From Bacteroidales bacterium (GTDB lineage: Bacteria; Bacteroidota; Bacteroidia; Bacteroidales; CAIWKO01), in contig DAOORA010000038.1 in NCBI GenBank assembly GCA_035389045.1, positions 1 through 40,186 on the forward strand: a stretch of 40,186 nucleotides of DNA, given 5' to 3'. Shown here piece by piece: positions 12,001-30,032 of this stretch. The notes under the pieces were generated by a model, which did not search any database, was not told where the DNA came from, and was given only the letters and a program-made list of their open reading frames with translations. Every line of letters begins with the position of its first letter. Position 1 is the stretch's first letter. A program made the position numbers and the translations under genes.

Positions 12001-14115
12001 TTACATTGAAGGTTCTACAAGATACATATCAATAAGCCCTTTGTTTTTGGCTTCCACTTTTCCGCGGTAGGCGCATTTAAAATGATCTTTAACGTATTCA
12101 TACGTGCTGCCTGAAATATTTACCTTCCCGATCACACCCGAAGATTCCATCCGTGAAGCTGTATTTACGGTATCACCCCATATATCATAGGCAAACTTTT
12201 TCGTACCAACGATGCCGGACACCACAGGTCCCGTATGTATACCCAACCTGAGCTCAAAAAAGGGTCTGTTCTCAGCAAGCCGCTCCGTTTTGTATTCTTC
12301 CATAAACCGGCATATCTCAAGGCCGCAACGGACAATATCCACAGGATGGGTTGTATTGGGAACCGGCAGCCCTCCGGCACACATATACGAATCGCCAATG
12401 GTTTTTATTTTTTCGATATGGTATTTTTCCATGATCAGGTCATACGCCCTGAAACAATAATCAAGCTCGGCAACCAGTTTTTCAGGACTCAGCTTCTCGG
12501 AAAATGCAGTAAATCCCTTAAAATCCGTGAAAAGAACGCTGACATTTTCGTAATAACGCGGTTTGGCAAAACCTTCCTTTTTTAGTTCTTCGGCGGTTTC
12601 TTCAGGGAGAATATTCATCAACAGTTTTTCAGACCGGTATTTTTCCGCTGCAATAATGAAATTATCCCGGCGTTTTTGCCTGTAACTCCTTAATATAACG
12701 ACAGCCAGGGCAGCCAGTAACCCAACAACAATGAGCAACGAATTTCTGAAAATCCGCTGCCGGCGCATATCAATAATTTGAATTTGCTCTTCCTGTTTCA
12801 GTATCTCGATCTCTTTCTGCCGCTGATCCGCCTTATATTTATCTTCAGCATCTGCCATGTGCTGGTAAATGTCCGCAGTAAATATGGAATCCTTTTTGGA
12901 CACATAGCGCCTGTAAAATTCCAAAGCCTCCTGGTAATTTTTTTTGGCAGCATATATATCCGAGATCAGCAGGTAATTGTTATAAATATAATCTTTATAT
13001 TTTATACCCTCTGCAATGGCAAGGCTCTTTTTACTGCTTTCAAGAGCTTTATCAAGCAAATTCATATGGTAATAGGCGCTTCCGGTTTCATAAAGCAGAA
13101 TCGACACTATGGATTGTTGTTGGTTTTGTTCGCAGTTTGCCAACGCAGTTTTAAAGTAGTTCAGGGCTGTGTTATATTTTCCTTTCGTTTTATAATATTT
13201 CCCCAAATAAGTATTTGATATGGATATTCCAATATTGTCATTGATTTCCGAAAACAACTCCGCTGCCTTTTTATGATAATAAAAGGCTTTTTCATACTGG
13301 CCGGTCTCAAAATACACCTTGCCCAGGTCATTTAATGAGTAAGCCAATGCTTTGTTGTCATTGCTTTTCCTGTTAATTTCATAAGCCTTTACAAAATACC
13401 CGAGTGCAACATCGTACTGTTTCCAGTCTAAATAGATATTTCCTATACTAGTTAGCAGACTGGATCTGCCTGAGCTTTTATCATTCATTACTTCCGCAAT
13501 TCTCAATGCTTTAAATAAATAATTCAGTGACTGCTTGTAATTCATCTGATCATAATACACATAGCTTATCTCACTCATCACCTGGATAACCCGTGAATAT
13601 AATGAGGCATCATTCATGTCCACATAGATATCCAGAGATCGGATATAAAAACTCATAGCATTGGCATAATCATTTTTATAGTAATAGTACTGGCCGGTAA
13701 GCATTAAATTCCAGGCAAGATTGACAGAATCCCGGATTTCTTTAAAAATGGTTGTTGCCTCAGAAAATGCACTTATGGAAAGGCTATCATTACCCTTCAT
13801 CATATGCAGAAACCCGATCGTCATGTATGATCTGCCGGTCAGGGTGTCATTGTTCAGGTTACGTGAAAGTTTTAATGCTTCCTGAGCATAAATAAAGGAC
13901 GAATCTGCAGAATATGTCAGCGATAACCTGCTCAGCGAAAGCAATATCCTGACCCTCTCCTCTCCTGCCAATCCCGAAAGTTCAGCCTTTAGCTGTTTTA
14001 CTTCCTGCTTTGTCTGGTTTTGGCCATAAGCGGCGGTATTGATACATGTGAAAAAAAACAATATCAAAACAACATTCAGAACGGGAGAAAAAAAAATGTT
14101 ATCCCTGATGTTCAT
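12001..14115 (-). CDS. Class III adenylyl cyclase with signal peptide, TPR array and one TM helix
   Basis: VLFTDFKGFT, EKIKTIGDSYM, YDIWGDTVNTASRMES; K and D purine-specifying residues indicate ATP; TPR repeats; TM LLIVVGLLAALAVVIL. Confidence 0.9.
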   Translation of the reverse strand: MNIRDNIFFSPVLNVVLILFFFTCINTAAYGQNQTKQEVKQLKAELSGLAGEERVRILLSLSRLSLTYSADSSFIYAQEALKLSRNLNNDTLTGRSYMTIGFLHMMKGNDSLSISAFSEATTIFKEIRDSVNLAWNLMLTGQYYYYKNDYANAMSFYIRSLDIYVDMNDASLYSRVIQVMSEISYVYYDQMNYKQSLNYLFKALRIAEVMNDKSSGRSSLLTSIGNIYLDWKQYDVALGYFVKAYEINRKSNDNKALAYSLNDLGKVYFETGQYEKAFYYHKKAAELFSEINDNIGISISNTYLGKYYKTKGKYNTALNYFKTALANCEQNQQQSIVSILLYETGSAYYHMNLLDKALESSKKSLAIAEGIKYKDYIYNNYLLISDIYAAKKNYQEALEFYRRYVSKKDSIFTADIYQHMADAEDKYKADQRQKEIEILKQEEQIQIIDMRRQRIFRNSLLIVVGLLAALAVVILRSYRQKRRDNFIIAAEKYRSEKLLMNILPEETAEELKKEGFAKPRYYENVSVLFTDFKGFTAFSEKLSPEKLVAELDYCFRAYDLIMEKYHIEKIKTIGDSYMCAGGLPVPNTTHPVDIVRCGLEICRFMEEYKTERLAENRPFFELRLGIHTGPVVSGIVGTKKFAYDIWGDTVNTASRMESSGVIGKVNISGSTYEYVKDHFKCAYRGKVEAKNKGLIDMYLVEPSM

Positions 14116-14176
14116 TTATTCAGGCTATATAAAAATTTGAATGTATTGTTTTAGTTACTGTAAAAATAAGTCTTTT

Positions 14177-14208
14177 TTTGATTTTATTAACTTTTTTTAT
14201 TAAATTTG
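14177..14208 (+). promoter_or_regulatory. Consensus Bacteroidota promoter upstream of small peptide 1
   Basis: TTTG(14177-80)-N20-TAAATTTG(14201-08). Confidence 0.7.
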
Positions 14209-14297
14209 CAACAACATAGCGAGTGCCTTGCCTTTGATTTAACATTTTTAAAATATATATTCTTATTTTATAATAATTATTTTAAAATATTATAAGT

Positions 14298-14429
14298 ATG
14301 ATTGCAAAAAAAATTAAACAAAAACCGGCTGTGACTATCAAATATAGTAAAAAAGAAAAAACTCCTGTTGCTGAGAACAAGGAGGTGGTTATAGGGATAA
14401 AACCCACAACCAACCCCCGTACTTTGTGA
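14298..14429 (+). CDS. 43-aa peptide, putative RiPP precursor A1 (not in ORF track)
   Basis: Manual translation MIAKKIKQKPAVTIKYSKKEKTPVAENKEVVIGIKPTTNPRTL*; ungapped paralogy with 14660..14890; own promoter. Confidence 0.75.
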   Translation: MIAKKIKQKPAVTIKYSKKEKTPVAENKEVVIGIKPTTNPRTL

Positions 14430-14539
14430 TGTAAGGTGTATGTGTTGTAATGATTTTTAGAATTATAAAAAAACATTCTTGTCGGGGTTTATTATAATAA
14501 TTGTATGACTGCTGTTATCCAATATTTCAGACAACTGTT

Positions 14540-14568
14540 TTTGTTACGTTAATATTTCATTATCTTTG
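14540..14568 (+). promoter_or_regulatory. Probable promoter upstream of small peptide 2 and the radical SAM gene
   Basis: TTTG(14540-43)-N17-TATCTTTG(14561-68); spacer shorter than usual. Confidence 0.55.
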
Positions 14569-14659
14569 TAAAAACTTATCTTATTCGACACCACCAAAAA
14601 TATAACTTGAACTAATTATCCGGCCCAATTGAACCACTTCACAATAAAAAATCAAAAAC

Positions 14660-14890
14660 ATGAGAACAAAAAACCTAAAACAAAAATTTACAGTTACATT
14701 CGATGATGTCGATTCAGACATGGCGATTGATCTGGAAAACAAAGGTCTTAGCCTGGGTATTAAACCCACAATAAATCCACGAATGCCTCCTTTTATACCC
14801 CCCGTTCCTGTTGTAAAAAAATCAACTACTGCAAAGAAAAAAACTGCTGCAGCACCAAAAAAGAAAATTGTAAAAAAAACAGGAAAATAA
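14660..14890 (+). CDS. 76-aa peptide, putative RiPP precursor A2 with Pro-rich then Lys/Ala-rich tail
   Basis: Shares KQK..VT and ENK....GIKPT.NPR with A1; immediately upstream of radical SAM gene. Confidence 0.75.
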   Translation: MRTKNLKQKFTVTFDDVDSDMAIDLENKGLSLGIKPTINPRMPPFIPPVPVVKKSTTAKKKTAAAPKKKIVKKTGK

Positions 14891-15005
14891 GATCATTCCG
14901 GCTCATCTTACAGCTGAAATATCGAATGGTATTTTATAGGGATATTATATCATTAATGAAATCTCTTTACAATAGATTCCAGTGAGCAATGATTAAGGCT
15001 TGGTA

Positions 15006-16625
15006 ATGGAAATACAGAGCAAACATGCAAGGATCGTATTGAATTGCATGCCACCGGCACAAATCCTTATGCCATCCATTACATTGAATATTTTAAAGGG
15101 CGTCCTGAAACAAAACGGATTCAGATCTGAAATTTTTTATTGGAACTTATTGCTGGAACCTTTTTTTAAACATTGGGACGAAAAGTTTGGTGATGAAAAC
15201 TTTGAATTCGCCCGTTTGCTCCCGTTTGTCTATTGGAAAGCAAANNNNNNNNNNNNNNNNNNNNNNNNNNNNNNNNNNNNNNNNNNNNNNNNNNNNNNNN
15301 NNNNNNNNNNNNNNNNNNNNNNNNNNNNNNNNNNNNNNNNNNNNGTACAGATCAGCCATATGATCAATAAAGATTCTTCAGATTTCAATGAAATACCCGG
15401 ACTGGTATACCGGAAAAAAAAACAACTCGTAATCTCTGAGAAAAAAGAAAGGCAGTACTTCAATCTTGATCATTATCCCGAACCCGATTACGAAGATTTT
15501 TACTCTTTAGTACGTAAGGATCCGGCGAATGAAAAAATGCTGTCTTATCCAGTAGAAGGGTCAAGAGGATGTATCTGGAACAAATGCAAATTCTGTGTGC
15601 TCAACAAGGGTTACAAATACCGGGAACGCGATGTTGAAAGCATAGTTAAAGAAATAGAACTTGCGATTGAAAAATATCACATAGAATATTTCCAATTCAT
15701 GGATAACAGCATCATCGGGGCCGACAAAATGCGACTTGAGTGCCTGCTAAAAAAACTTTCCGTTTCTTATATTGACTGCCCGGATGATTTTAGTCTTGCC
15801 GCCGAAATCATTCCCGCCGGATTGAATGCTTCCTTTTATAAGAAATTGGCGCTGGCCGGATTCAGAATGATGCAGGTCGGCGGCGAATCATTTGCCGATT
15901 CACTGTTAAAAAAAATGAATAAAAAAAATTCTTTTTCCGACAACCTGCTCGCTTATAAATTTTGCCTCAAATACGGCATAAACCCTATCGGTGCAAATAT
16001 TATTACCGGCATTCCCGGCGAAACCCTTAAAGACATAAAAACGTGCATTAAGAACATCCCCTTCCTAAGGTTTTTTGTAAGCAACAGGCAGATACAATTT
16101 ATGGAAAGCCGGTTGGCGCTCGATAAACACTCCGTTTTCTACAGGGAAATAAACGAAAATGAAAAGGAGAAATATACTGATCATTTCTTTTTTAATTACC
16201 TTCCACATTCCTTGATTGCTAAAATGAACCGCTTTGACCTGTTTCATTTCAGTAAAAACAAATCACCAAAGCAAAAAGAATTATGGGATGAGTTTTTTAA
16301 AATACTACAAAAATATCATCGGGCAAAACTTTCTTATAAACTTTACGACTATGGAAATGTAATTCAGTTTGAAGAATTATACAACAATATTAAAACCGAT
16401 GCGGTTGTTTTTGACAAGCCCGAACAATGGCAGATTCTGGTAAATGCAAACTCACAATTGCTTTCCTTTGATGAAATGATGCAATTATTAAAGAACAAAT
16501 ACAAAAACACAACACCAAAAAAACTAAAAACCATGATGAATGAATTAAAATCTCATCATCTGCTTTATTTTGACGAAAATTACAACAAAATAATTGCTGT
16601 CATTGATACGGATTGTCTCCTTTGA
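15006..16625 (+). CDS. B12-binding-type radical SAM enzyme resembling RiPP C-methyltransferases (spans assembly gap)
   Basis: N-terminal MPP....PS..L..LK..L...G; EGSRGCIWNKCKFC (Cx4Cx2C); FMDN, QVGGESF....LKKMNK, NIITGIPGET; start set at ATG 15006 rather than TTG 15000. Confidence 0.8.
   Translation: MEIQSKHARIVLNCMPPAQILMPSITLNILKGVLKQNGFRSEIFYWNLLLEPFFKHWDEKFGDENFEFARLLPFVYWKAXXXXXXXXXXXXXXXXXXXXXXXXXXXXXXXXXXVQISHMINKDSSDFNEIPGLVYRKKKQLVISEKKERQYFNLDHYPEPDYEDFYSLVRKDPANEKMLSYPVEGSRGCIWNKCKFCVLNKGYKYRERDVESIVKEIELAIEKYHIEYFQFMDNSIIGADKMRLECLLKKLSVSYIDCPDDFSLAAEIIPAGLNASFYKKLALAGFRMMQVGGESFADSLLKKMNKKNSFSDNLLAYKFCLKYGINPIGANIITGIPGETLKDIKTCIKNIPFLRFFVSNRQIQFMESRLALDKHSVFYREINENEKEKYTDHFFFNYLPHSLIAKMNRFDLFHFSKNKSPKQKELWDEFFKILQKYHRAKLSYKLYDYGNVIQFEELYNNIKTDAVVFDKPEQWQILVNANSQLLSFDEMMQLLKNKYKNTTPKKLKTMMNELKSHHLLYFDENYNKIIAVIDTDCLL
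15245..15344. other. Scaffold gap (100 N)
   Basis: Run of exactly 100 N. Confidence 0.99.
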
Positions 16626-16709: not shown

Positions 16710-17297
16710 ATGAACCTCGACGCGGCAACATCTTATGCGATCAAACAACTCGAACCCATCGAAAAGACGGTTTATTATTATCATAACGTATACCATGCCC
16801 TTGATGTTTTTAAATCAGTAGCGGAATATGGTCTTTCCGAAAAAATTAACGGAACAGACCTCATGTTACTGAAAACAGCTGCGATTTTCCACGACATCGG
16901 AATTATTAATTCGTACAATGCCCATGAAGAAGAGTCTGTGCGTATCATCCACGAAGTTCTACCCGGATTTGATTACAGCGTCCAGCAAATTGATGCTGTT
17001 GGGAAATTGATTATGGCAACAAAAATGCCCACAAATCCCGGGAATGATCTCGAAAAATTAATATGTGATGCAGACCTCGACTACTTGGGCCGTGAGGATT
17101 ACATTGAAATATCCGACCGGCTGAAACGCGAGATGGAGGTGATCAACAGAAAAAAATTCTCAGCCGCAGAATGGCTTGATTTTCAACTTGGTTTCCTGGT
17201 TGCACACAACTATTATTCTCAGACTGCCCGCTCCCTTAGAAATGACGGTAAACTATTAAATATTATTAAAATTCAGAAATTATTAAAAAAAGTATAA
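16710..17297 (+). CDS. HD-domain metal-dependent phosphohydrolase
   Basis: YHN..H..DV, FHDIG, HEEES, MATK, CDADLDYLG. Confidence 0.88.
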   Translation: MNLDAATSYAIKQLEPIEKTVYYYHNVYHALDVFKSVAEYGLSEKINGTDLMLLKTAAIFHDIGIINSYNAHEEESVRIIHEVLPGFDYSVQQIDAVGKLIMATKMPTNPGNDLEKLICDADLDYLGREDYIEISDRLKREMEVINRKKFSAAEWLDFQLGFLVAHNYYSQTARSLRNDGKLLNIIKIQKLLKKV

Positions 17298-17334: not shown

Positions 17335-18180
17335 ATGGATAATAAAAATTTGATCCTTGTCCCGACAGATTTTTCTGAAGTTTGTGATAATGCAATAATC
17401 TACGGCGCCGAGTTAGCCAAAATTCTTGGATTTGATCTCTGTATTTTACATATTATTGATAAAAAGACAAAAGCAGTCCTGAAAAAAGAAAATGCAGGCA
17501 TGATTGAAATAGCAGTGAAACTTGACAACATTGCAAAAGCAACTTCAAAAAAATATGGTATCGGGGTGAAATCTATTGCTGAAGAAGGAGACATTTTTAC
17601 CGGCATCGGCAAAATTGCCGCAAAACTTAAAGTAAACCTGATGATCCTGGGCACTCACGGTAAAGTAGGATTAACACAAAAATTCGGAATGAGTTTTGCA
17701 AAAAAAGTGATCGCTACCGTACCTGTCCCCGTCATTGTTGTTCATGAGGCAGCCAGCATCGGAAAAGGATTTAAAAATATTATCTTCCCCGTGAGCACCA
17801 CCGCCGAAGTCAGACAGAAAGTCAAATGGTCTATTCTTATTGCAAAAACTTTTAAATCTACCATCCATCTTTTTCAACTGAACCAGAATGCCGAAGAAGA
17901 TAAAAAGATCATGCAGAATTATCTTAGACAGATCACAAAGGAATTTGATAAAGAAAACATTAAATATACCCATGCAACGGCCGACAAAAAAATCAGTTTT
18001 GCAAAACAGGTGCAGGATTATGCCCATGAAGTTAATGCCGACCTCATAACAGTTATGATCAACCTGGATGTTCTTAATTTTAAATTCGGACCCTACGACG
18101 AAAAAATTATGTTCAACCCTTACGAGATTCCAGTTATGTGTATTAATCCCGTAAAGACTAAATTTGAATATTGGAAATAA
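17335..18180 (+). CDS. Universal stress protein (tandem USP domains)
   Basis: ILVPTDFS, ILGTHGKVG, V.VPVIVV, second USP-like half. Confidence 0.9.
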   Translation: MDNKNLILVPTDFSEVCDNAIIYGAELAKILGFDLCILHIIDKKTKAVLKKENAGMIEIAVKLDNIAKATSKKYGIGVKSIAEEGDIFTGIGKIAAKLKVNLMILGTHGKVGLTQKFGMSFAKKVIATVPVPVIVVHEAASIGKGFKNIIFPVSTTAEVRQKVKWSILIAKTFKSTIHLFQLNQNAEEDKKIMQNYLRQITKEFDKENIKYTHATADKKISFAKQVQDYAHEVNADLITVMINLDVLNFKFGPYDEKIMFNPYEIPVMCINPVKTKFEYWK

Positions 18181-22511: not shown

Positions 22512-22777
22512 GTATGAGCAAAAGCTCAGAATTTTTCCCAATTAAATCATTATCAGGGATTTTCATCCGATACCGGCAATAACCAAAACGCAGCAAAAGC
22601 AGAATATAGTATGATGAATAGAGTGTCTTGAATGGCATACCTGTGATATCAAATAAACTCCATTTGAAAATTTTTGCATTCTTTTACCGTTCCTGTTTTT
22701 TTTTCCGAAAGATTTCTTTAAATAAAATAATTTTTTTACCTTTACATCAATTATTTTTAATCATTCATCCATCTTTT

Positions 22778-25700
22778 ATGAAAAACAAAATATTTTTTTG
22801 CAATTTTATTATGATTGCACTATTGGTGCTATTGTCAAACGCACTGTTTTCAAATACCCCTGAAAAACCTGAAACATCAATCCGGATAAAAGAAAACACC
22901 TATGAAAAACTCGTCCTGGTAAATTCACTTTCAATTCAGGATATTAAAGCCCTTAAAGTAAACACCTCTGCGGGTTTTTTCTCTGAGCTGATCATCCCGG
23001 AATACGGAAGTTCCAACCATATTGGCGACCCCAAACTGCCTGTCATGAAACGTCTTATTGAAATTCCGGTGGGGGCTGCGGTAAAGATCAATATTAAAAA
23101 CTCATCATATACGGATATCAAACTGAACAATCTGGGTGCTTTGTATGCGGTAATGCCCGCCCAACCCTCTCTTTCCAAAAGCGATGACCCGAAAAATATT
23201 GAATTCAGATACAACAAGTCCACCTATAAAACAAATTCATTACTTCAGCACGACCTGGTAACCTTTGATTTTATCGGCAATATGCGGGGCACAAACATCG
23301 GGCGCCTCGATATCGCTCCCGTTTTGTACAATCCGGTAAAAAACACCCTGCGGGTTTATACCTCTCTTGAAGTGGAGATCCTGTTCGAAAATGCCGATAT
23401 CACAGCGACAATCCAACAGAAAGAAATCTATTACTCACCCTATTTTGAACCCTCTTTTGGAAAAATCTTCAACTACAAAACCCTGAACAATAAATCCAAC
23501 CTTACCTCTTACCCCGTTAAATATGTCATTGTTGCAGACACCATGTTTTACAATGCCTTACAGCCCTTTGTACAGTGGAAAACAAAAAAAGGTTTCACGG
23601 TCATTCAGGCTTATACCAATAATCCGGCTGTTGGAAATACCACCACTTCCATAAAATCATATCTGTTAAATCTTTACAATACAGGAACTATAAACAATCC
23701 TGCACCTTCATTCGTGTTATTCGTGGGCGATATTGCCCAGGTCCCTGCATTTAGCGGCACCGAAGGTTCACATGTCACCGACCTCTATTATTGTGAGTAT
23801 ACCGGCGACTTCCTGCCCGAAGCTTATTACGGAAGGTTTTCTGCCACCAACATCGCTGAATTACAGCCGCAAATAGATAAAACACTTGAATACGAACAGT
23901 TTCTGATGCCAACATCCGCTTTCCTCGACTCCTGTGTGATGATTGCCGGACAAGACAATACGTATGGCCCTACACACGGCGATGCCCAGATCAATTATGG
24001 TACCGACACTTATTTCAACGCCGCCCACGGTTTATACTCAAATACATACCTGTATGCCGTTTCCGGAAGCAGCGCAGCCCAGATAATACAAAATGTCAGC
24101 AATGGGGTCTGTATGGCCAATTATACGGCTCATGGCGGTTCTAACGGATGGTCCGACCCTTCGTTCAGCACCAGCGATATCAATATATTGAAAAATGAGC
24201 ACAAATATCCTTTGATGATTGGAAATTGCTGCCTTACCCTCACCTTTGACGATCCCTGTTGCTTTGGCGAAGCTTTGCTCAGGGCAGACCGCAAAGGAGC
24301 TTTGGGCTACATCGGTGGCTCAAACAGTACATACTGGGACGAGGACTTTTACTGGGCTGTCGGATATCGTAATTTTGGTTCCGGCAACCCGCCTCAGCAC
24401 CCGGTGTACGACGCTACCCGGCCAGGCGCCTACGACGCCACATTTCATGATCATAGCGAACCTTTTGGCAACTGGTACGTTACCCAGGGACAGATGGTGT
24501 CTGCCGGAAACCTGGCCGTCACGCAGTCCGGAAACTCAAGCTTTTCTTATTACTGGGAAGTATACCATTTGATGGGTGACCCGTCACTTATGGTTTACTA
24601 TTCGGATCCTCCGCCCATGACCGTATCATACAGCGCACTGATGCCGCTGGCCGTTGCCTCCTTTGATATTACCACCAATGCCCCTTATGCGTATGCGGCT
24701 ATTTCAAAAGGCGGGGTATTATATGGCGCCGCACTGGCGGATTCTCTGGGAAATATCAGTGTAAATCTGAACCCGATCAGCGTGCCCGGTGTGGCCGATA
24801 TCGTTGTCACATGCCAGAACAAAAGACCTTATATCGGAACCGTCGTGGTGGCTTCACCTACAGGTCCCTATGTCTTATACACTAAAAATCATGTCAATAC
24901 CAGCGGCAATGGTGACACACTGGTGGATTACAACGAAAATGTTGTGCTGGATGTTACCCTGAAAAACTATGGAGCCGCTAATGCCGGTAATGTAATTGCT
25001 ACTATCTCGTCTTCCGATCCCTACATCAACATCACCGACAATACACAAAACTGGGGAACAATATCCTCAAATAATTCTTCTACACAAACCGCTGCTTATG
25101 CTTTTACAACAACGGGGTTTGTTCCCGACCAGCATATTGCGGCAATTAATATGGCCATACAGGACAACAACAGCAACACATGGAGTTCTGCTTTTAACAT
25201 AAAAATCAGCGCCCCGGAACTTAGTATCGGCAATTTCTCCATTAATGACTCCCTGGGAAATCATAACCACATGTTCGACCCGTCGGAAAATGCTCAAATA
25301 CTGATCGGCTCTTCCAATACCGGACATAGCAATGCCACTGCCACAACAGGAACACTCACAACAAACAGCCCTTATATTACAATCACTAATAATACTTTTA
25401 ATTTCAACACACTCCATAAAGCAACTACAGCCAACGCTGTATTCGATATTTCCGTGTCTTCTACCCTTCCGGACACGGCCATTATCGAATTCATTTACAC
25501 CTTACAATCCGGGGCTTACAGCAAAGTCAGCTATTTTTATGTCAATGTCGGCCAGGCCATGGAAGATTTTGAAACAGGTGACTTTTCGCGGTTCGATTGG
25601 CAGCAGGGTGGTAATGTACCCTGGATCATCACCAATGTGGCGCCCTATGAAGGTCTCTACAGTGCAAAATCAGGCATCATAAACGATGACCAGACCTCCG

Positions 25701-26296
25701 AACTTTCTGTGTCTATGAATGTGACAACGGCAGACACCATTTCATTCTGGAAAAAAGTCTCCTGCGAAGAAGGATCATTTTGGGGCGGAAGTATTTACCA
25801 CTGGTACGACTATCTGGAATTTTTAATCGATGATGTCTCACAGGACAAATGGGATGGCGACAACGCATCCTTCACCCGGGGTGCATATCATGTAGGCACA
25901 GGCAACCATACTTTCAAATGGGTATATAGTAAAGATTATTCCTATAGTGGTTTCAGCGACTGCGCCTGGCTTGACTATATCATCTTCCCGCCTTCCATCA
26001 AGGTTATCAACTCGGTGGATGAAAACATAATAGAAAATGCTATATTAAATTGTTATCCCAACCCGGTTTCGTCCTTCGCCACTATAAACTTTTCACTCTC
26101 CAGAGCATCCGGCGTCAGCTTAAAATTGTATGATATGAACGGCCGCCTGGTCGATGATATCTTAAACAACAGTTATAAACATGAAGGCACTTACAATATG
26201 CTGATCAACATGGGTAAATTCACGCCGGGCGTCTATCACCTTGAACTTATTAATGATAATAATAAATTTTCGAAAAAGATAGTAGTAATTAATTAA
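22778..26296 (+). CDS. C25 cysteine peptidase, Lys-gingipain (Kgp)-like, T9SS cargo
   Basis: Propeptide QPSLSKSDDP; NYTAHG and GNCC catalytic motifs; TYWDEDFYWAVG; YYWEVYHLMGD; CTD (YPNP...GVY...KIVVIN); start set at ATG 22778. Confidence 0.9.
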   Translation: MKNKIFFCNFIMIALLVLLSNALFSNTPEKPETSIRIKENTYEKLVLVNSLSIQDIKALKVNTSAGFFSELIIPEYGSSNHIGDPKLPVMKRLIEIPVGAAVKINIKNSSYTDIKLNNLGALYAVMPAQPSLSKSDDPKNIEFRYNKSTYKTNSLLQHDLVTFDFIGNMRGTNIGRLDIAPVLYNPVKNTLRVYTSLEVEILFENADITATIQQKEIYYSPYFEPSFGKIFNYKTLNNKSNLTSYPVKYVIVADTMFYNALQPFVQWKTKKGFTVIQAYTNNPAVGNTTTSIKSYLLNLYNTGTINNPAPSFVLFVGDIAQVPAFSGTEGSHVTDLYYCEYTGDFLPEAYYGRFSATNIAELQPQIDKTLEYEQFLMPTSAFLDSCVMIAGQDNTYGPTHGDAQINYGTDTYFNAAHGLYSNTYLYAVSGSSAAQIIQNVSNGVCMANYTAHGGSNGWSDPSFSTSDINILKNEHKYPLMIGNCCLTLTFDDPCCFGEALLRADRKGALGYIGGSNSTYWDEDFYWAVGYRNFGSGNPPQHPVYDATRPGAYDATFHDHSEPFGNWYVTQGQMVSAGNLAVTQSGNSSFSYYWEVYHLMGDPSLMVYYSDPPPMTVSYSALMPLAVASFDITTNAPYAYAAISKGGVLYGAALADSLGNISVNLNPISVPGVADIVVTCQNKRPYIGTVVVASPTGPYVLYTKNHVNTSGNGDTLVDYNENVVLDVTLKNYGAANAGNVIATISSSDPYINITDNTQNWGTISSNNSSTQTAAYAFTTTGFVPDQHIAAINMAIQDNNSNTWSSAFNIKISAPELSIGNFSINDSLGNHNHMFDPSENAQILIGSSNTGHSNATATTGTLTTNSPYITITNNTFNFNTLHKATTANAVFDISVSSTLPDTAIIEFIYTLQSGAYSKVSYFYVNVGQAMEDFETGDFSRFDWQQGGNVPWIITNVAPYEGLYSAKSGIINDDQTSELSVSMNVTTADTISFWKKVSCEEGSFWGGSIYHWYDYLEFLIDDVSQDKWDGDNASFTRGAYHVGTGNHTFKWVYSKDYSYSGFSDCAWLDYIIFPPSIKVINSVDENIIENAILNCYPNPVSSFATINFSLSRASGVSLKLYDMNGRLVDDILNNSYKHEGTYNMLINMGKFTPGVYHLELINDNNKFSKKIVVIN

Positions 26297-26303
26297 AATT
26301 ACC

Positions 26304-29300
26304 ATGAAAAAACTATTTGCTTTATGGATTCTGATCCATTTGTGCAGCTATTCGTTTGCACAAAACTGGGTCAATATTAATTCTGCCACCCCGGTAGCGG
26401 CAAAAGTTTCACTCACTTCGGCAGACATCGTCAATTCATCCTTCAATGTTGACATTAAAGGATATTTTAGCCATGATATCACCACCCCTCATGGCCAGAA
26501 AACAATATTAAGTTTGGATAATACAACGCCGATTCTCGAAGCCGGAGCCCCCGACCTGCCTAAGGTTACAACATCGCTTATCATCCCAGACGATAGCAAT
26601 ATGGAGGTTGAGGTTACTTACTCAAACTATACAGAATATCAGAATATTCATATCGCTCCATCAAAAGGAAACCTTACACGGGATATCAATCCGGCAACGA
26701 TTCCATATACTTACGGCCCTGTTTACAGCCAGAATCAGTTCTTTCCCGGAACACTCGCCGCCCTGAAAGAACCTTATATCTTAAGAGATTTCAGAGGACA
26801 GACCGTGATTATATATCCCTTTCAATACAATCCGGTAACCAAAACCCTTCGCGTTTACCACAACATTGGCGTAAGTTTGCACACAGCACCGGGCACAGCA
26901 ATTAATCCTTTTATCCGCACCCAGCCCCTTTCAAAAATTGAAAAAGAATTCAGCAGTATTTACAACAGTCATTTTCTGAATTACCACAACAATCATAAAT
27001 ATACGCCTCTGGATGAACACGGCAACATGCTGATCATTTGTGCTGATGCCTATATGAATGCCATGCAACCCTTTGTTGACTGGAAAAACGATGAGGGTAT
27101 CCCTACTGTGATGGTAAGTAAAACTACGGCAGGCGCAACGGCCTCAGCAATAAAGACTTATGTCACCAATTATTACAATGCCAACGGGCTGACATTTTTA
27201 TTGCTGGTAGGCGACGCAGCCCAGGTTCCCACATTCACCGTTTCCGGCGGCGGCTCTGACCCCTCCTATGGTTATATCTCTGGCAACGATCACTACCAGG
27301 AATTTTTTGTAGGCCGTTTTTCGGCTGAAACCATAGAACACGTAACCACACAGGTCAACAGGACGGTCAGGTATGAAAAAACGCCATCCGTAACCCCGGG
27401 AAAATTTAACCATGCTGTCAATATAGGTTCGGATCAGAGACCCGGTGATGACAACGAATACGACTATCAGCATCAGCGAAACCTGGGTGCCTTGATGATG
27501 GGATTTACCTATACCAGCCGGGCAGAATTATTTGACGGCAGCCAGAGTGGACTTGATGCCAGCGGCGATCCCTCTGCGGCTATGCTTTCTACCGAAGTAA
27601 ACAACGGGGCAGGCATCATTACTTACACCGGACACGGTTCCAATACAGCCTTTTCCACAACAGGCTTTTCTAATACAAATGTCAACGCATTAACCAATAC
27701 AACGCTCTGGCCTTTTATATGGTCGGTAGCCTGTGTAAATGGAAATTTTGTTAGCACAACCTGCCTGGCAGAAGCATGGCTCAGGGCAACCAGCGGTGGT
27801 CAACCCTCTGGAGCCATCGCCACACTGATGTCAACCATCAATCAAAGCTGGGACCCGCCAATGGAAGGACAGGATGAAATGGTGGACATCCTCACCGAAA
27901 ATGCAGGCACAAATATTAAACGCACATTTGGCGGCCTCTCGGTAAATGGTATTTTTAAAATGAATGACACCTATTCCGATTACAACATGACCGATACCTG
28001 GACGATCTTTGGCGATCCTTCTTTAATGGTCAGGACCGACGACCCCAAATCCATGACCGTTAGCCACACCTCTTCAGTACTGATCGGAGAAACCAGCCTG
28101 CTGGTAAACTGTAATGTCAATAATGCCTTTGTATGCCTTACCGTAAACCATCAGATTATCGGCACAGGTACTATTAACGGAGGATCTGCAAATATTACTT
28201 TCCCTTCATTAGCCTCTTCCGACAGCATTTTGGTTACGGTTACTGCATTCAATTATATTCCTTACCAGGGAAAAGTAGCCGTAATTGAACAACTCCTGAC
28301 CAATAATGCTCAGGCTTACAGTATTATGAGCCCTGCACAAAACTATAACTGCACCGGTTTGACCGCTCAGCCCCGCATGGTAATCCGAAACATGGGCGCC
28401 AACAATCTCACATCCTTAAATACTACCTTTATTTTCGATGGCTCACCATCTTATGTCACCTGGTCAGGAAACCTGCCCAGCTTCGGCACAGACACTATTA
28501 CTTTTCCCGGTATTACACTCAGTTCCGGTTTACATAATATTATTGCATATATATCACAACCTAATGGCAATGCCGATGTATATACATCCAATGACACCCT
28601 TAAAAAAACCGTAACGGTGAATAATCTGCCTGTTACAAGTTCTTTTGTTGCAGATAAAGTCAATTCCTGTACCGCTCCTCTGACGGTTCAATTTACCAAC
28701 AACAGCGCCAATGCTGTTTCGTACCTTTGGAACTTTGGCGACGGAACTACCAGCACCGACCCCAATCCAACACATCAGTATACCACGCTGGGGGTGTATG
28801 ATGTAACACTCACTGCCGATGCCGGAGAATGTGGAAGCGCGGTAAATACTGAAACAGAATACATTGTTCTCGGGGCAATCCCTCCGGTACTCAGTGATAC
28901 ATCCTCATGCGGGCCAGGCAGTTTTGTACTGACTGCCGGCGGAACCGGAATAAAAAACTGGTATGATGCTGCCAGCGGAGGAACACTGCTTTATACGGGA
29001 AACACATACTCAACGCCGGTGCTGAACACAACTACCACATATTATGTGGAACAAACCATGCTGCCCCCTCTGGAATACGGAGGAAAATTTGATACTACCG
29101 GCGGTTCATCTTTACATACCAATAACAGTTATTGGCTGGTGTTCAATTGTACTGCCCCGGTTACCCTTAAATCCGTCAAAGTATATGCAGGAGCAGCCGG
29201 AAACCGTATCATACAGCTTAGGAATAGTGCCGGTACCATACTACAGGCTGACACCATTAACGTACCAGCCGGTGAAAGCAGAATAACCCTCAATTTTAAC

Positions 29301-30032
29301 GTGCCTGTCGGAAACAATATGTCACTGCGCTGCGGCACCACTAACCCCAATATGATCAGAAATTCCGGTGGTATCACTTTTCCGTATGATATCGGCGGCA
29401 AAATATCCATTACGGGATCCAATGCCACCACCGCTACCCGATACTATTATTTCTATGATTGGGAAATTACCGGCGAAACCTGCGTGAGTTCACGGGCGCC
29501 GGTTACCGCATATATTAATACCGCCGCACCTTCGGCTGACTTTTCTTTTACGGTAAATAACAGCACTGTTGATTTTACAGACCTGTCAACCAATGCCACC
29601 ACATATTCCTGGGATTTCGGTGACGGTAACACCAGCATTCTGGCCAACCCGACACATACTTATGCCGCCTCGGGGTCCTATACCGTTCAGCTTACTGTTA
29701 ATAATGGTTGCGGGACAAACACCGTCAGCAAAAATGTGGTGATAAATGCCACTGCGGTCATTGAAGAATCTTCAATCGAAAATGTGAACATCTTTCCCAA
29801 CCCGGCTTCTGCTCATACCGTCTTTTTTTCATTTGAATATCTTTATGAGCCGGTCACTATCACTATTTTTGATATTCTCGGCAACAGCATCGACAAAATC
29901 GAACACATAAATCATAGCAACGATCCCGTCACCATCACATACGATATTGATCATCTTCAATCGGGAATGTATTTTGTCGTGTTCAATAACAAGAACAAAA
30001 ACCTGATAAAAAAACTGGCCATAAATAAATAG
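26304..30032 (+). CDS. C25 cysteine peptidase, Arg-gingipain (Rgp)-like, with PKD/Ig domains, T9SS cargo
   Basis: Propeptide APSKGNLTRD; YTGHGS, VACVNG, STINQSW.PPM.GQDEM, DTWTIFGDPSL; two W.FGDG PKD motifs; CTD (FPNP...SGMY...KKLAINK). Confidence 0.92.
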   Translation: MKKLFALWILIHLCSYSFAQNWVNINSATPVAAKVSLTSADIVNSSFNVDIKGYFSHDITTPHGQKTILSLDNTTPILEAGAPDLPKVTTSLIIPDDSNMEVEVTYSNYTEYQNIHIAPSKGNLTRDINPATIPYTYGPVYSQNQFFPGTLAALKEPYILRDFRGQTVIIYPFQYNPVTKTLRVYHNIGVSLHTAPGTAINPFIRTQPLSKIEKEFSSIYNSHFLNYHNNHKYTPLDEHGNMLIICADAYMNAMQPFVDWKNDEGIPTVMVSKTTAGATASAIKTYVTNYYNANGLTFLLLVGDAAQVPTFTVSGGGSDPSYGYISGNDHYQEFFVGRFSAETIEHVTTQVNRTVRYEKTPSVTPGKFNHAVNIGSDQRPGDDNEYDYQHQRNLGALMMGFTYTSRAELFDGSQSGLDASGDPSAAMLSTEVNNGAGIITYTGHGSNTAFSTTGFSNTNVNALTNTTLWPFIWSVACVNGNFVSTTCLAEAWLRATSGGQPSGAIATLMSTINQSWDPPMEGQDEMVDILTENAGTNIKRTFGGLSVNGIFKMNDTYSDYNMTDTWTIFGDPSLMVRTDDPKSMTVSHTSSVLIGETSLLVNCNVNNAFVCLTVNHQIIGTGTINGGSANITFPSLASSDSILVTVTAFNYIPYQGKVAVIEQLLTNNAQAYSIMSPAQNYNCTGLTAQPRMVIRNMGANNLTSLNTTFIFDGSPSYVTWSGNLPSFGTDTITFPGITLSSGLHNIIAYISQPNGNADVYTSNDTLKKTVTVNNLPVTSSFVADKVNSCTAPLTVQFTNNSANAVSYLWNFGDGTTSTDPNPTHQYTTLGVYDVTLTADAGECGSAVNTETEYIVLGAIPPVLSDTSSCGPGSFVLTAGGTGIKNWYDAASGGTLLYTGNTYSTPVLNTTTTYYVEQTMLPPLEYGGKFDTTGGSSLHTNNSYWLVFNCTAPVTLKSVKVYAGAAGNRIIQLRNSAGTILQADTINVPAGESRITLNFNVPVGNNMSLRCGTTNPNMIRNSGGITFPYDIGGKISITGSNATTATRYYYFYDWEITGETCVSSRAPVTAYINTAAPSADFSFTVNNSTVDFTDLSTNATTYSWDFGDGNTSILANPTHTYAASGSYTVQLTVNNGCGTNTVSKNVVINATAVIEESSIENVNIFPNPASAHTVFFSFEYLYEPVTITIFDILGNSIDKIEHINHSNDPVTITYDIDHLQSGMYFVVFNNKNKNLIKKLAINK

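Follow-up and report, generated by a model that had tools for sequence, protein, structure and literature searches.

Among B12 radical SAM enzymes, BotRMT1-3 methylate Pro, Val and Phe, and the target of Mmp10 is Arg. A figure legend of PMC12931638 gives PoyB and PoyC as B12 radical SAM methyltransferases, and BotRMT1-3 are also listed in that paper. We analyzed a 40,186-nucleotide stretch of Bacteroidales DNA, henceforth the window, in which a gene for a cobalamin-type radical SAM enzyme (rSAM) is directly preceded by two small genes, S and L. A preliminary description of this DNA had called attention to S and had not seen the link between the two small genes and the enzyme.

Comparison with described systems

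The cassette resembles the proteusin-type systems (PoyB, PoyC; TIGR03975), which pair a precursor peptide with cobalamin radical SAM C-methyltransferases, in that TIGR03975 is the best family of the enzyme from end to end, in the cobalamin radical SAM fold, and in the small peptide genes directly upstream of the enzyme. It differs from them in several respects. The S/L enzyme falls under the family cutoff (211 vs 281.85) and forms its own long-branched clade; S and L have no NHLP or Nif11 leader, are much shorter and have a Pro/Thr/Asn/Arg core; and an epimerase, a protease and a transporter are absent nearby.

We also compared the cassette to the double-glycine-leader loci of other Bacteroidota (L036, L037, L046, L050, L061 and L039). 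The enzymes encoded there belong to the same family (30-36% identity) and share the Cx4Cx2C motif and the C-terminal domain, and a small ORF immediately precedes the enzyme gene. The abundance of Pro, Val and Ile in their peptide cores is a further likeness to S and L. However, their peptides end the leader in ...GG and some lie near an ABC-transporter gene, whereas S and L have neither, and no sequence similarity between these peptides and S or L was detected.

With the bottromycin-type systems the locus would share the action of a B12 radical SAM enzyme on a short, ribosomally made peptide, as proposed here for S and L, and the long C-terminal extension of L past the core could act as a follower. 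Unlike those systems, the S/L locus has no YcaO, hydrolase or other bottromycin genes, S has no extension, and the sequences are unrelated. A further comparison is with the methylases of methyl-coenzyme M reductase (MCR), MgmA/QCMT and Mmp10. MgmA is among the best structural matches of the modeled S/L-linked enzyme, and these methylases act on side-chain carbons of Gln or Arg; the S/L core has Asn and Arg. In contrast to what we propose for S and L, they act on a large MCR subunit rather than on a dedicated small peptide from an adjacent gene. These methylases come from archaea, and the NCBIfam score of the S/L-linked enzyme is low in this comparison (51.7 bits).

The cassette fits no described precursor family. 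In the literature we found no description of the S/L family, nor of the sequences KPTINPR or KPTTNPR, although a mention in a supplementary table is still possible. B12 enzymes go unmentioned in the accessible part of PMC10352776, which deals with RiPP mining in Bacteroidales.

S is a conserved 43-codon gene

The S gene lies at positions 14298-14429 on the plus strand. As the preliminary description stated, the frame from the ATG at 14298 to the TGA at 14427-14429 reads out MIAKKIKQKPAVTIKYSKKEKTPVAENKEVVIGIKPTTNPRTL (43 aa). The gene had also been called hidden. Such a gene is easily dropped by gene callers, but the frame does appear in the ORF list at a minimum length of 25 aa. The product of the window's own S is already present in a large protein collection, and one 43-aa orthologue already carries the NCBI name "hypothetical protein". 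Searches of S against Pfam and NCBIfam returned matches far under the cutoffs (PARP14 KH, 17.6 bits; AdhE, 12 bits), which were rejected.

To find orthologues, we first identified relatives of the neighboring enzyme and then examined the DNA that precedes their genes. The preliminary description had made its claim of a conserved gene depend on homologues with an intact frame. Such homologues occur in G001, G002, G008 and G013, four related members of the same genus in which S has 43 codons each time and the C-terminus is NPRT(L/I), and on eight metagenome contigs. The same four are the genomes, out of the five related ones with the radical SAM enzyme, in which both S and L are intact. The eight further loci were found by a scan of metagenome contigs and every one has a 43-codon S and an L; they are not independent, because most have peptide sequences identical to those of the genomes. 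Overall, the frame of S is intact and exactly 43 aa long in five of five genomes having S and in eight of eight metagenome loci (13 copies). Across five species the S frame alone is open in all, and the alternative frames contain stops.

The S frame is under purifying selection. Comparison of G008 with G001 by the Nei-Gojobori method gave pS 0.62 and pN 0.06, and the excess of synonymous change recurs in the orthologue pairs among G001, G008 and G013 (pS 0.55-0.62 vs pN 0.05-0.06), in agreement with the protein-level selection suggested in the preliminary description. For the core of the S orthologues the values are pS 0.64-1.0 vs pN 0.04-0.17.

L is a paralogue of S that shares its N-terminus and core

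The L gene (14660-14890, plus strand) starts 362 nt beyond the start of S and encodes a 76-aa paralogue with the same N-terminus and core followed by a Pro- and Lys/Ala-rich tail. In a single BLASTP comparison, residues 1-41 of both peptides aligned without gaps, with 18 of 41 identical (E 1e-9). Residues 14-25 of S have zero identity to L in this alignment and are thus fully diverged, as previously noted. The shared core (14394-14420 in S vs 14756-14782 in L) has eight of nine residues identical, and five of these eight use different synonymous codons, again as described (S: GGG ATA AAA CCC ACA ACC AAC CCC CGT; L: GGT ATT AAA CCC ACA ATA AAT CCA CGA). Between the two cores, pS is 0.82 (6.0/7.3) and pN is 0.05 (1.0/19.7). 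The orthologues of L in G001, G002, G008 and G013 have 74-83 codons, with pS 0.37-0.80 vs pN 0.08-0.32. S, though tail-less, is more strictly conserved than L. Judged by these codon patterns, S and L are genuine small protein-coding genes under protein-level selection.

The core G(V/I)KPTTNPRT, a putative modification site, corresponds to codons 33-42 of S (14394-14423, plus strand) and combines conserved columns with third-position variation. In an alignment of the 10 codons of the core, G(V/I)KPT(T/I)NPR(T/M), across 10 genes, the numbers of columns varying at codon positions 1, 2 and 3 were 2, 2 and 10. Position 38 is Thr in every S and Ile in every L, which suggests that the two copies have specialized. 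Beyond the core, S stops after two residues and L continues with a Pro-rich stretch and a Lys/Ala-rich cationic tail. S and L also have in common a conserved N-terminal segment, M-I-x-K-x-V-K-x-K-(F/Y)-x-V-T. Neither peptide has a double-glycine motif, and no known leader family (NHLP, Nif11) in Pfam or NCBIfam matched S or L at meaningful scores.

The preliminary description proposed an old duplication conserved as a peptide and not as a DNA or RNA motif. This proposal is upheld by the collinearity of the paralogues, the third-position variation, a pN far below pS, and the lack of an Rfam match or notable fold (see below).

Two variants of the peptides deserve mention. In the L gene of G002 (L016 4030-4281; also protein P0007), a ten-residue VVT(F/Y)xNV unit is tandemly duplicated (FVVTYHNVEE / FVVTFNNVGEE); the duplicated unit sits within the conserved N-terminal segment. 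In G005 (L020 3837-4130), whose enzyme is 52-56% identical, the gene upstream of it encodes just one peptide, Lys-rich and 97 aa long, in place of the S/L pair. Its N-terminus (MKAKKVKSNK) is similar to that of S and L, it has VNAVNPAPQ at the place of the KPTxNPR core, and its resemblance to L is in the tail only (E 0.005). Because this peptide lacks the KPTxNPR core, the "invariant core" is not universal.

Precursor peptides are usually disordered, and so is L in its Atlas model (pLDDT 0.44). A search of the ESM Atlas with L gave no usable match.

Promoters, RNA structure and transcription

The Bacteroidetes promoter consensus consists of TTTG (-33) and TAnnTTTG (-7). A match to it precedes S on the plus strand at 14177-14208 (TTTG at 14177-14180, a 20-nt spacer and TAAATTTG at 14201-14208) and ends 89 nt before the ATG, which agrees with the promoter placed about 90 bp upstream in the preliminary description. 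L has its own match on the same strand at 14540-14568 (TTTG, 17 nt and TATCTTTG), at the same distance from its ATG. Because both promoter matches lie about 90 nt before an ATG, the duplication appears to have copied a whole small transcription unit. The pattern TTTG-N17-21-TAnnTTTG occurs at 6 sites per 40 kb vs 2.0 expected, and 6 sites were reached by none of 100 shuffles; two of the six occupy equivalent positions ahead of S and L. A TAnnTTTG -7 box is found upstream of five of five S genes (80-103 nt) and four of five L genes.

The region 13900-15240 matched nothing in Rfam at E ≤ 1. Neither the two 5' UTRs nor the sequences past the two stops gave a notable RNA fold relative to shuffles (z -1.1 to +1.2), and a scan for sigma-70 promoters and terminators returned low-value matches only. 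A weak inverted repeat overlaps the core on the minus strand (14412-14386), and its codons differ between species.

Part of the stretch was found in nine public sequencing runs; the alignments cover runs X2 and X4-X6. Contigs of three RNA libraries, from three studies of activated sludge in 2018, match at 100% identity over 14752-15056, 14752-14936 and 14784-14934. They take in the 3' end region of L together with the spacer, and one reaches the start of the enzyme gene; none lies over S, and contigs cannot show absence. These contigs give a weak hint that L is transcribed, as they may derive from contaminating DNA and do not show strand or ends. Two of them, from different studies, end at 14934-14936, about 45 nt past the stop of L, where a DNA run continues. 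The coincidence hints weakly that a transcript ends near 14934-14936; no terminator-like fold was found at that place.

The downstream enzyme

The enzyme gene lies at 15006-16625 on the plus strand. The ORF list gives a TTG start at 15000, and the ATG at 15006 agrees with the start in relatives. Its 541-aa frame is broken by a run of 100 N at 15245-15344. Intact orthologues have 627-633 aa from the start codons used for alignment (640 aa from the first in-frame start in G008), so the run should represent about 370 nt. On the metagenome contig L097, which has S and L identical to those of the window, the enzyme can be aligned with the G002 copy along the full 632 residues of the latter; the enzyme gene of the window is thus probably intact in the organism.

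We compared the enzyme with NCBIfam, Pfam and solved structures. The G002 copy matched TIGR03975, "RiPP maturation radical SAM C-methyltransferase", with 211.1 bits (next family, 67 bits). Its residues 10-617 align to positions 1-598 of the 606 in the model, the best match by >140 bits. The curated cutoff of 281.85 bits is missed by the copies of G002 (211.1) and G005 (223.4) and by that of the window with its N (149.1). Pfam detected Radical_SAM (1.3e-15) and, only weakly, B12-binding (0.0072), and the sequence matches in the PDB were CysS and TokK. The AlphaFold model (pLDDT 92.2, pTM 0.89) has as its best Foldseek matches among solved folds TsrM (2.4e-17), OxsB, MgmA, CysS and TokK, all of them cobalamin radical SAM enzymes. 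With a B12-binding domain and a radical SAM barrel in its predicted structure, the enzyme is a cobalamin-dependent (class B) radical SAM enzyme. The canonical spacing of the radical SAM cysteines is Cx3Cx2C. In this family we observed the motif C-x-W-x-x-C-x-F-C (Cx4Cx2C) in 43 of 43 aligned members (residues 282-290 in G002).

The C-terminal ~100 residues are modeled as a winged-helix domain of three strands, three helices and a hairpin. In a separate model of this domain (pLDDT 88.7) the elements are E58-65, E68-75, E78-85, H88-99, H104-114 and H120-132, and the full model has the same order. A strand-strand-strand-helix-helix-helix order is the strict RRE definition given in the introduction of PMC12710340, and the modeled domain agrees with that order. 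Structure searches with the domain returned generic winged-helix regulators only (best Foldseek E 2.8e-3; VIA Z ≤ 9.4). The resulting lists of solved structures contained no RRE-bearing protein and are no evidence against RRE identity. No PqqD match in the enzyme was found in Pfam at E ≤ 1, and the best PDB sequence match of the domain was the radical SAM protein 5wgg over residues 32-93, at a non-significant E of 0.15. Because the order of elements matches, yet the structural matches are generic winged-helix proteins and PqqD does not match, we call the predicted domain RRE-like in topology and not a proven RRE.

Gene order, co-occurrence and neighborhood

The order S, L, rSAM is constant in every locus, and 115 nt separate L from the enzyme gene. 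In all seven metagenome loci with enough DNA, the rSAM gene is found downstream. We searched for the enzyme in 61 genomes and found it in six, namely the genome of the window (G000) and 5 of the 17 other members of the genus; none of the 43 genomes outside the genus has it. A profile of the peptides, searched in 23 family genomes, gave credible matches (E ≤ 4e-12) in the same six enzyme carriers and in none of the 17 others. The match in G005 is circular, as its sequence is inside the profile; it was not recovered with a profile from which that sequence had been left out. Two further matches, in G007 and G021 (E ~0.73), lie inside frames of 525 and 392 aa and were taken as chance. This co-occurrence is suggestive only and is not statistically independent, because it comes from one genus of related genomes, several of which are incomplete (68-98%).

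One genome of interest is G010 (L094, G010:C20, 3812-4012), in which a 55-66-aa 3' remnant of the rSAM gene lies next to the HD and Usp genes and S and L are absent. The remnant without S or L points to the loss of the three genes together. The flanking TPR-cyclase of G010 is only 38% identical to that of the window.

In the window, S is flanked by a divergently transcribed TPR-adenylate/guanylate cyclase gene (12001-14115, minus strand). Beyond the enzyme gene lie genes for an HD-domain protein (16710-17297, plus strand), which weakly matches a cyclic-nucleotide phosphodiesterase, and for a tandem Usp protein (17335-18180, plus strand), with glycosyltransferase genes also near. Cyclase, HD and Usp genes flank the cassette in all carriers, and the three may form a cyclic-nucleotide signaling neighborhood. 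By Pfam, no leader peptidase or exporter gene was found beside the cassette or elsewhere in the 40-kb window. The other genes of the window are housekeeping genes.

We also observed a pair of C25 (gingipain-family) peptidase genes on the plus strand at 22628-26296 (1222 aa) and 26304-30032 (1242 aa). Both peptidases bear type IX secretion C-terminal sorting domains.

Distribution of the family and its distant relatives

When the family profile was run against 5.8 billion proteins in a word-indexed search, 11 clusters were returned, all from Bacteroidales/Bacteroidota metagenome genomes and none with a Pfam domain. Among 1.84 billion representatives searched exhaustively with HMMER, a 43-position profile had seven matches, six of which are the S/L family itself. 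The seventh (P0012), a 2927-aa acidic repeat protein matched over 15 weak stretches, was rejected as summed repeat noise. The family is thus confined to a single genus among the 1.84 billion representatives, and its ecological reach is small.

The enzyme family is broader. We collected 46 distant homologues with 27-36% identity from Bacteroidota, Thermodesulfobacteriota, Nitrospirota, Theionarchaea and others, and judged by eye that candidate precursor ORFs lie near 20 of them. The upstream DNA was checked for 44 loci, and in seven of them the ORFs carry a double-glycine or NHLP-like leader or a core rich in Gly; two further loci were found separately. One ORF upstream of a distant homologue scored 43.8 bits on the NHLP leader model (cutoff 50.9).

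At 11 of these 20 distant-homologue loci we noticed a conserved, shared Cys-rich ORF of 64-89 aa, with an end resembling ...CGCCCAYANYCPNK, about 2.5 kb downstream on the opposite strand (L031, L034, L035, L038, L042, L049, L051, L053, L058, L060 and L062; Nitrospirota, Syntrophorhabdus, Desulfobacterales and others). These ORFs likely form a separate precursor family.

We built a quick maximum-likelihood tree, in which the S/L-linked enzymes group as a clade apart (SH-aLRT 100, stem 0.73). Each precursor type pairs with its own rSAM clade in this tree, with the GG-linked and Cys-rich-linked enzymes elsewhere; such a match does not by itself show co-evolution, because kin share labels.

Function of the S and L peptides

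We propose that S and L are probably ribosomally made substrate (precursor) peptides of the downstream cobalamin radical SAM enzyme. The proposal draws on the strict gene order, the shared carriers, the joint loss in G010, the match of the enzyme to a RiPP-type family and the RRE-like order of its modeled C-terminal domain. The position of the wider enzyme family beside candidate precursors also points this way, and the disorder of the L model is consistent with it. The proposal is weakened by the lack of a known leader type, a GG site, and an adjoining peptidase or exporter, by the score of the enzyme under the TIGR03975 cutoff, by the merely generic winged-helix matches of the C-terminal domain, by co-occurrence drawn from one genus, and by G005, which keeps the enzyme with a core-less peptide. 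A complex prediction of the G002 enzyme with G002 S (score 0.01, mark 0.32) speaks neither for nor against binding.

If S and L are substrates, the RRE-like winged-helix domain of the enzyme would dock a conserved part of the peptide, the strongest candidate being the N-terminal segment M-I-x-K-x-V-K-x-K-(F/Y)-x-V-T, and the variable middle of S and L (residues 14-32) would serve as a spacer. The B12/[4Fe-4S] core would then alkylate at least one residue of G(V/I)KPT(T/I)NPR(T), with C-methylation as the likeliest chemistry. Because S ends after the core and L has a tail, there may be two products of one enzyme.

Other explanations account for part of these observations. S and L could be stand-alone small basic proteins (nucleic-acid- or ribosome-binding, accessory or immunity factors) that the enzyme leaves unmodified, the linkage being that of an inherited three-gene island. 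We consider this unlikely, though it agrees with several features of the locus: each gene has its own promoter, a recognizable leader, protease and exporter are all absent, a single genus supplies all the co-occurrence, and the Lys/Ala/Pro-rich tail on L and on the 97-aa protein of G005 is reminiscent of those of DNA-binding proteins. Stand-alone proteins would leave unaccounted for the strict gene order beside a RiPP-type enzyme and the loss of peptides and enzyme together in G010. They would also have to be reconciled with the peptide-recognition-like domain predicted on the enzyme, with distant homologues that adjoin obvious precursor peptides, and with the stricter conservation of S, the copy without a tail.

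Alternatively, S and/or L could be cis-acting regulatory leader or arrest peptides, with stalling on the Pro-rich KPTxNPR/PP tuning downstream expression. The focus of amino-acid conservation on a short Pro-containing motif, the fixed length of S with the motif beside the stop codon, the 115 nt between L and the enzyme gene, and the RNA-library contig that spans from L to the 5' end of the enzyme gene would all suit this explanation. Yet what comes after S is a stretch of about 230 nt and then the promoter of L, with no structural gene, and the UTRs and the stretches past the stops contain no terminator, anti-terminator or significant fold. Such a role would also leave unexplained why the N-terminus is conserved and why L has a 35-aa tail, and G005 keeps the enzyme without the motif; we regard regulatory peptides as improbable. 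It is less probable still that the 43-codon frame is untranslated and owes its conservation to a DNA or RNA element or to chance. RNA contigs were found with none over S, and the weak inverted repeat does lie over the core, but the codons that form this repeat vary among species and Rfam has no match. Moreover, variation in the core is concentrated in third positions across the 10 genes, pN is far under pS, and all 13 copies seen keep an open frame of exactly 43 codons while the other frames have stops.

Taking S and L as substrates of the enzyme, we tentatively extend the proposal to a new class of ribosomal product, which we put forward as a possibility and would not yet call probable. It would be a two-peptide system with no known leader type, in which a divergent enzyme alkylates KPT(T/I)NPR and the short and the cationic-tailed peptide act together, in one uncultured Bacteroidales genus of sludge and digesters. 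As part of this same tentative extension, the target would be a Pro, Thr, Ile, Asn or Arg in a context undescribed for B12 radical SAM enzymes.

A 43-codon frame easily lost by gene callers is thus a selected gene with a testable partner. If the enzyme modifies S and L, the locus would be a minimal three-gene cassette of two substrates and one cobalamin radical SAM enzyme that is directly expressible and assayable. It could then reveal new B12 radical SAM chemistry at a short, invariant core and a form of precursor recognition that operates with no known leader.
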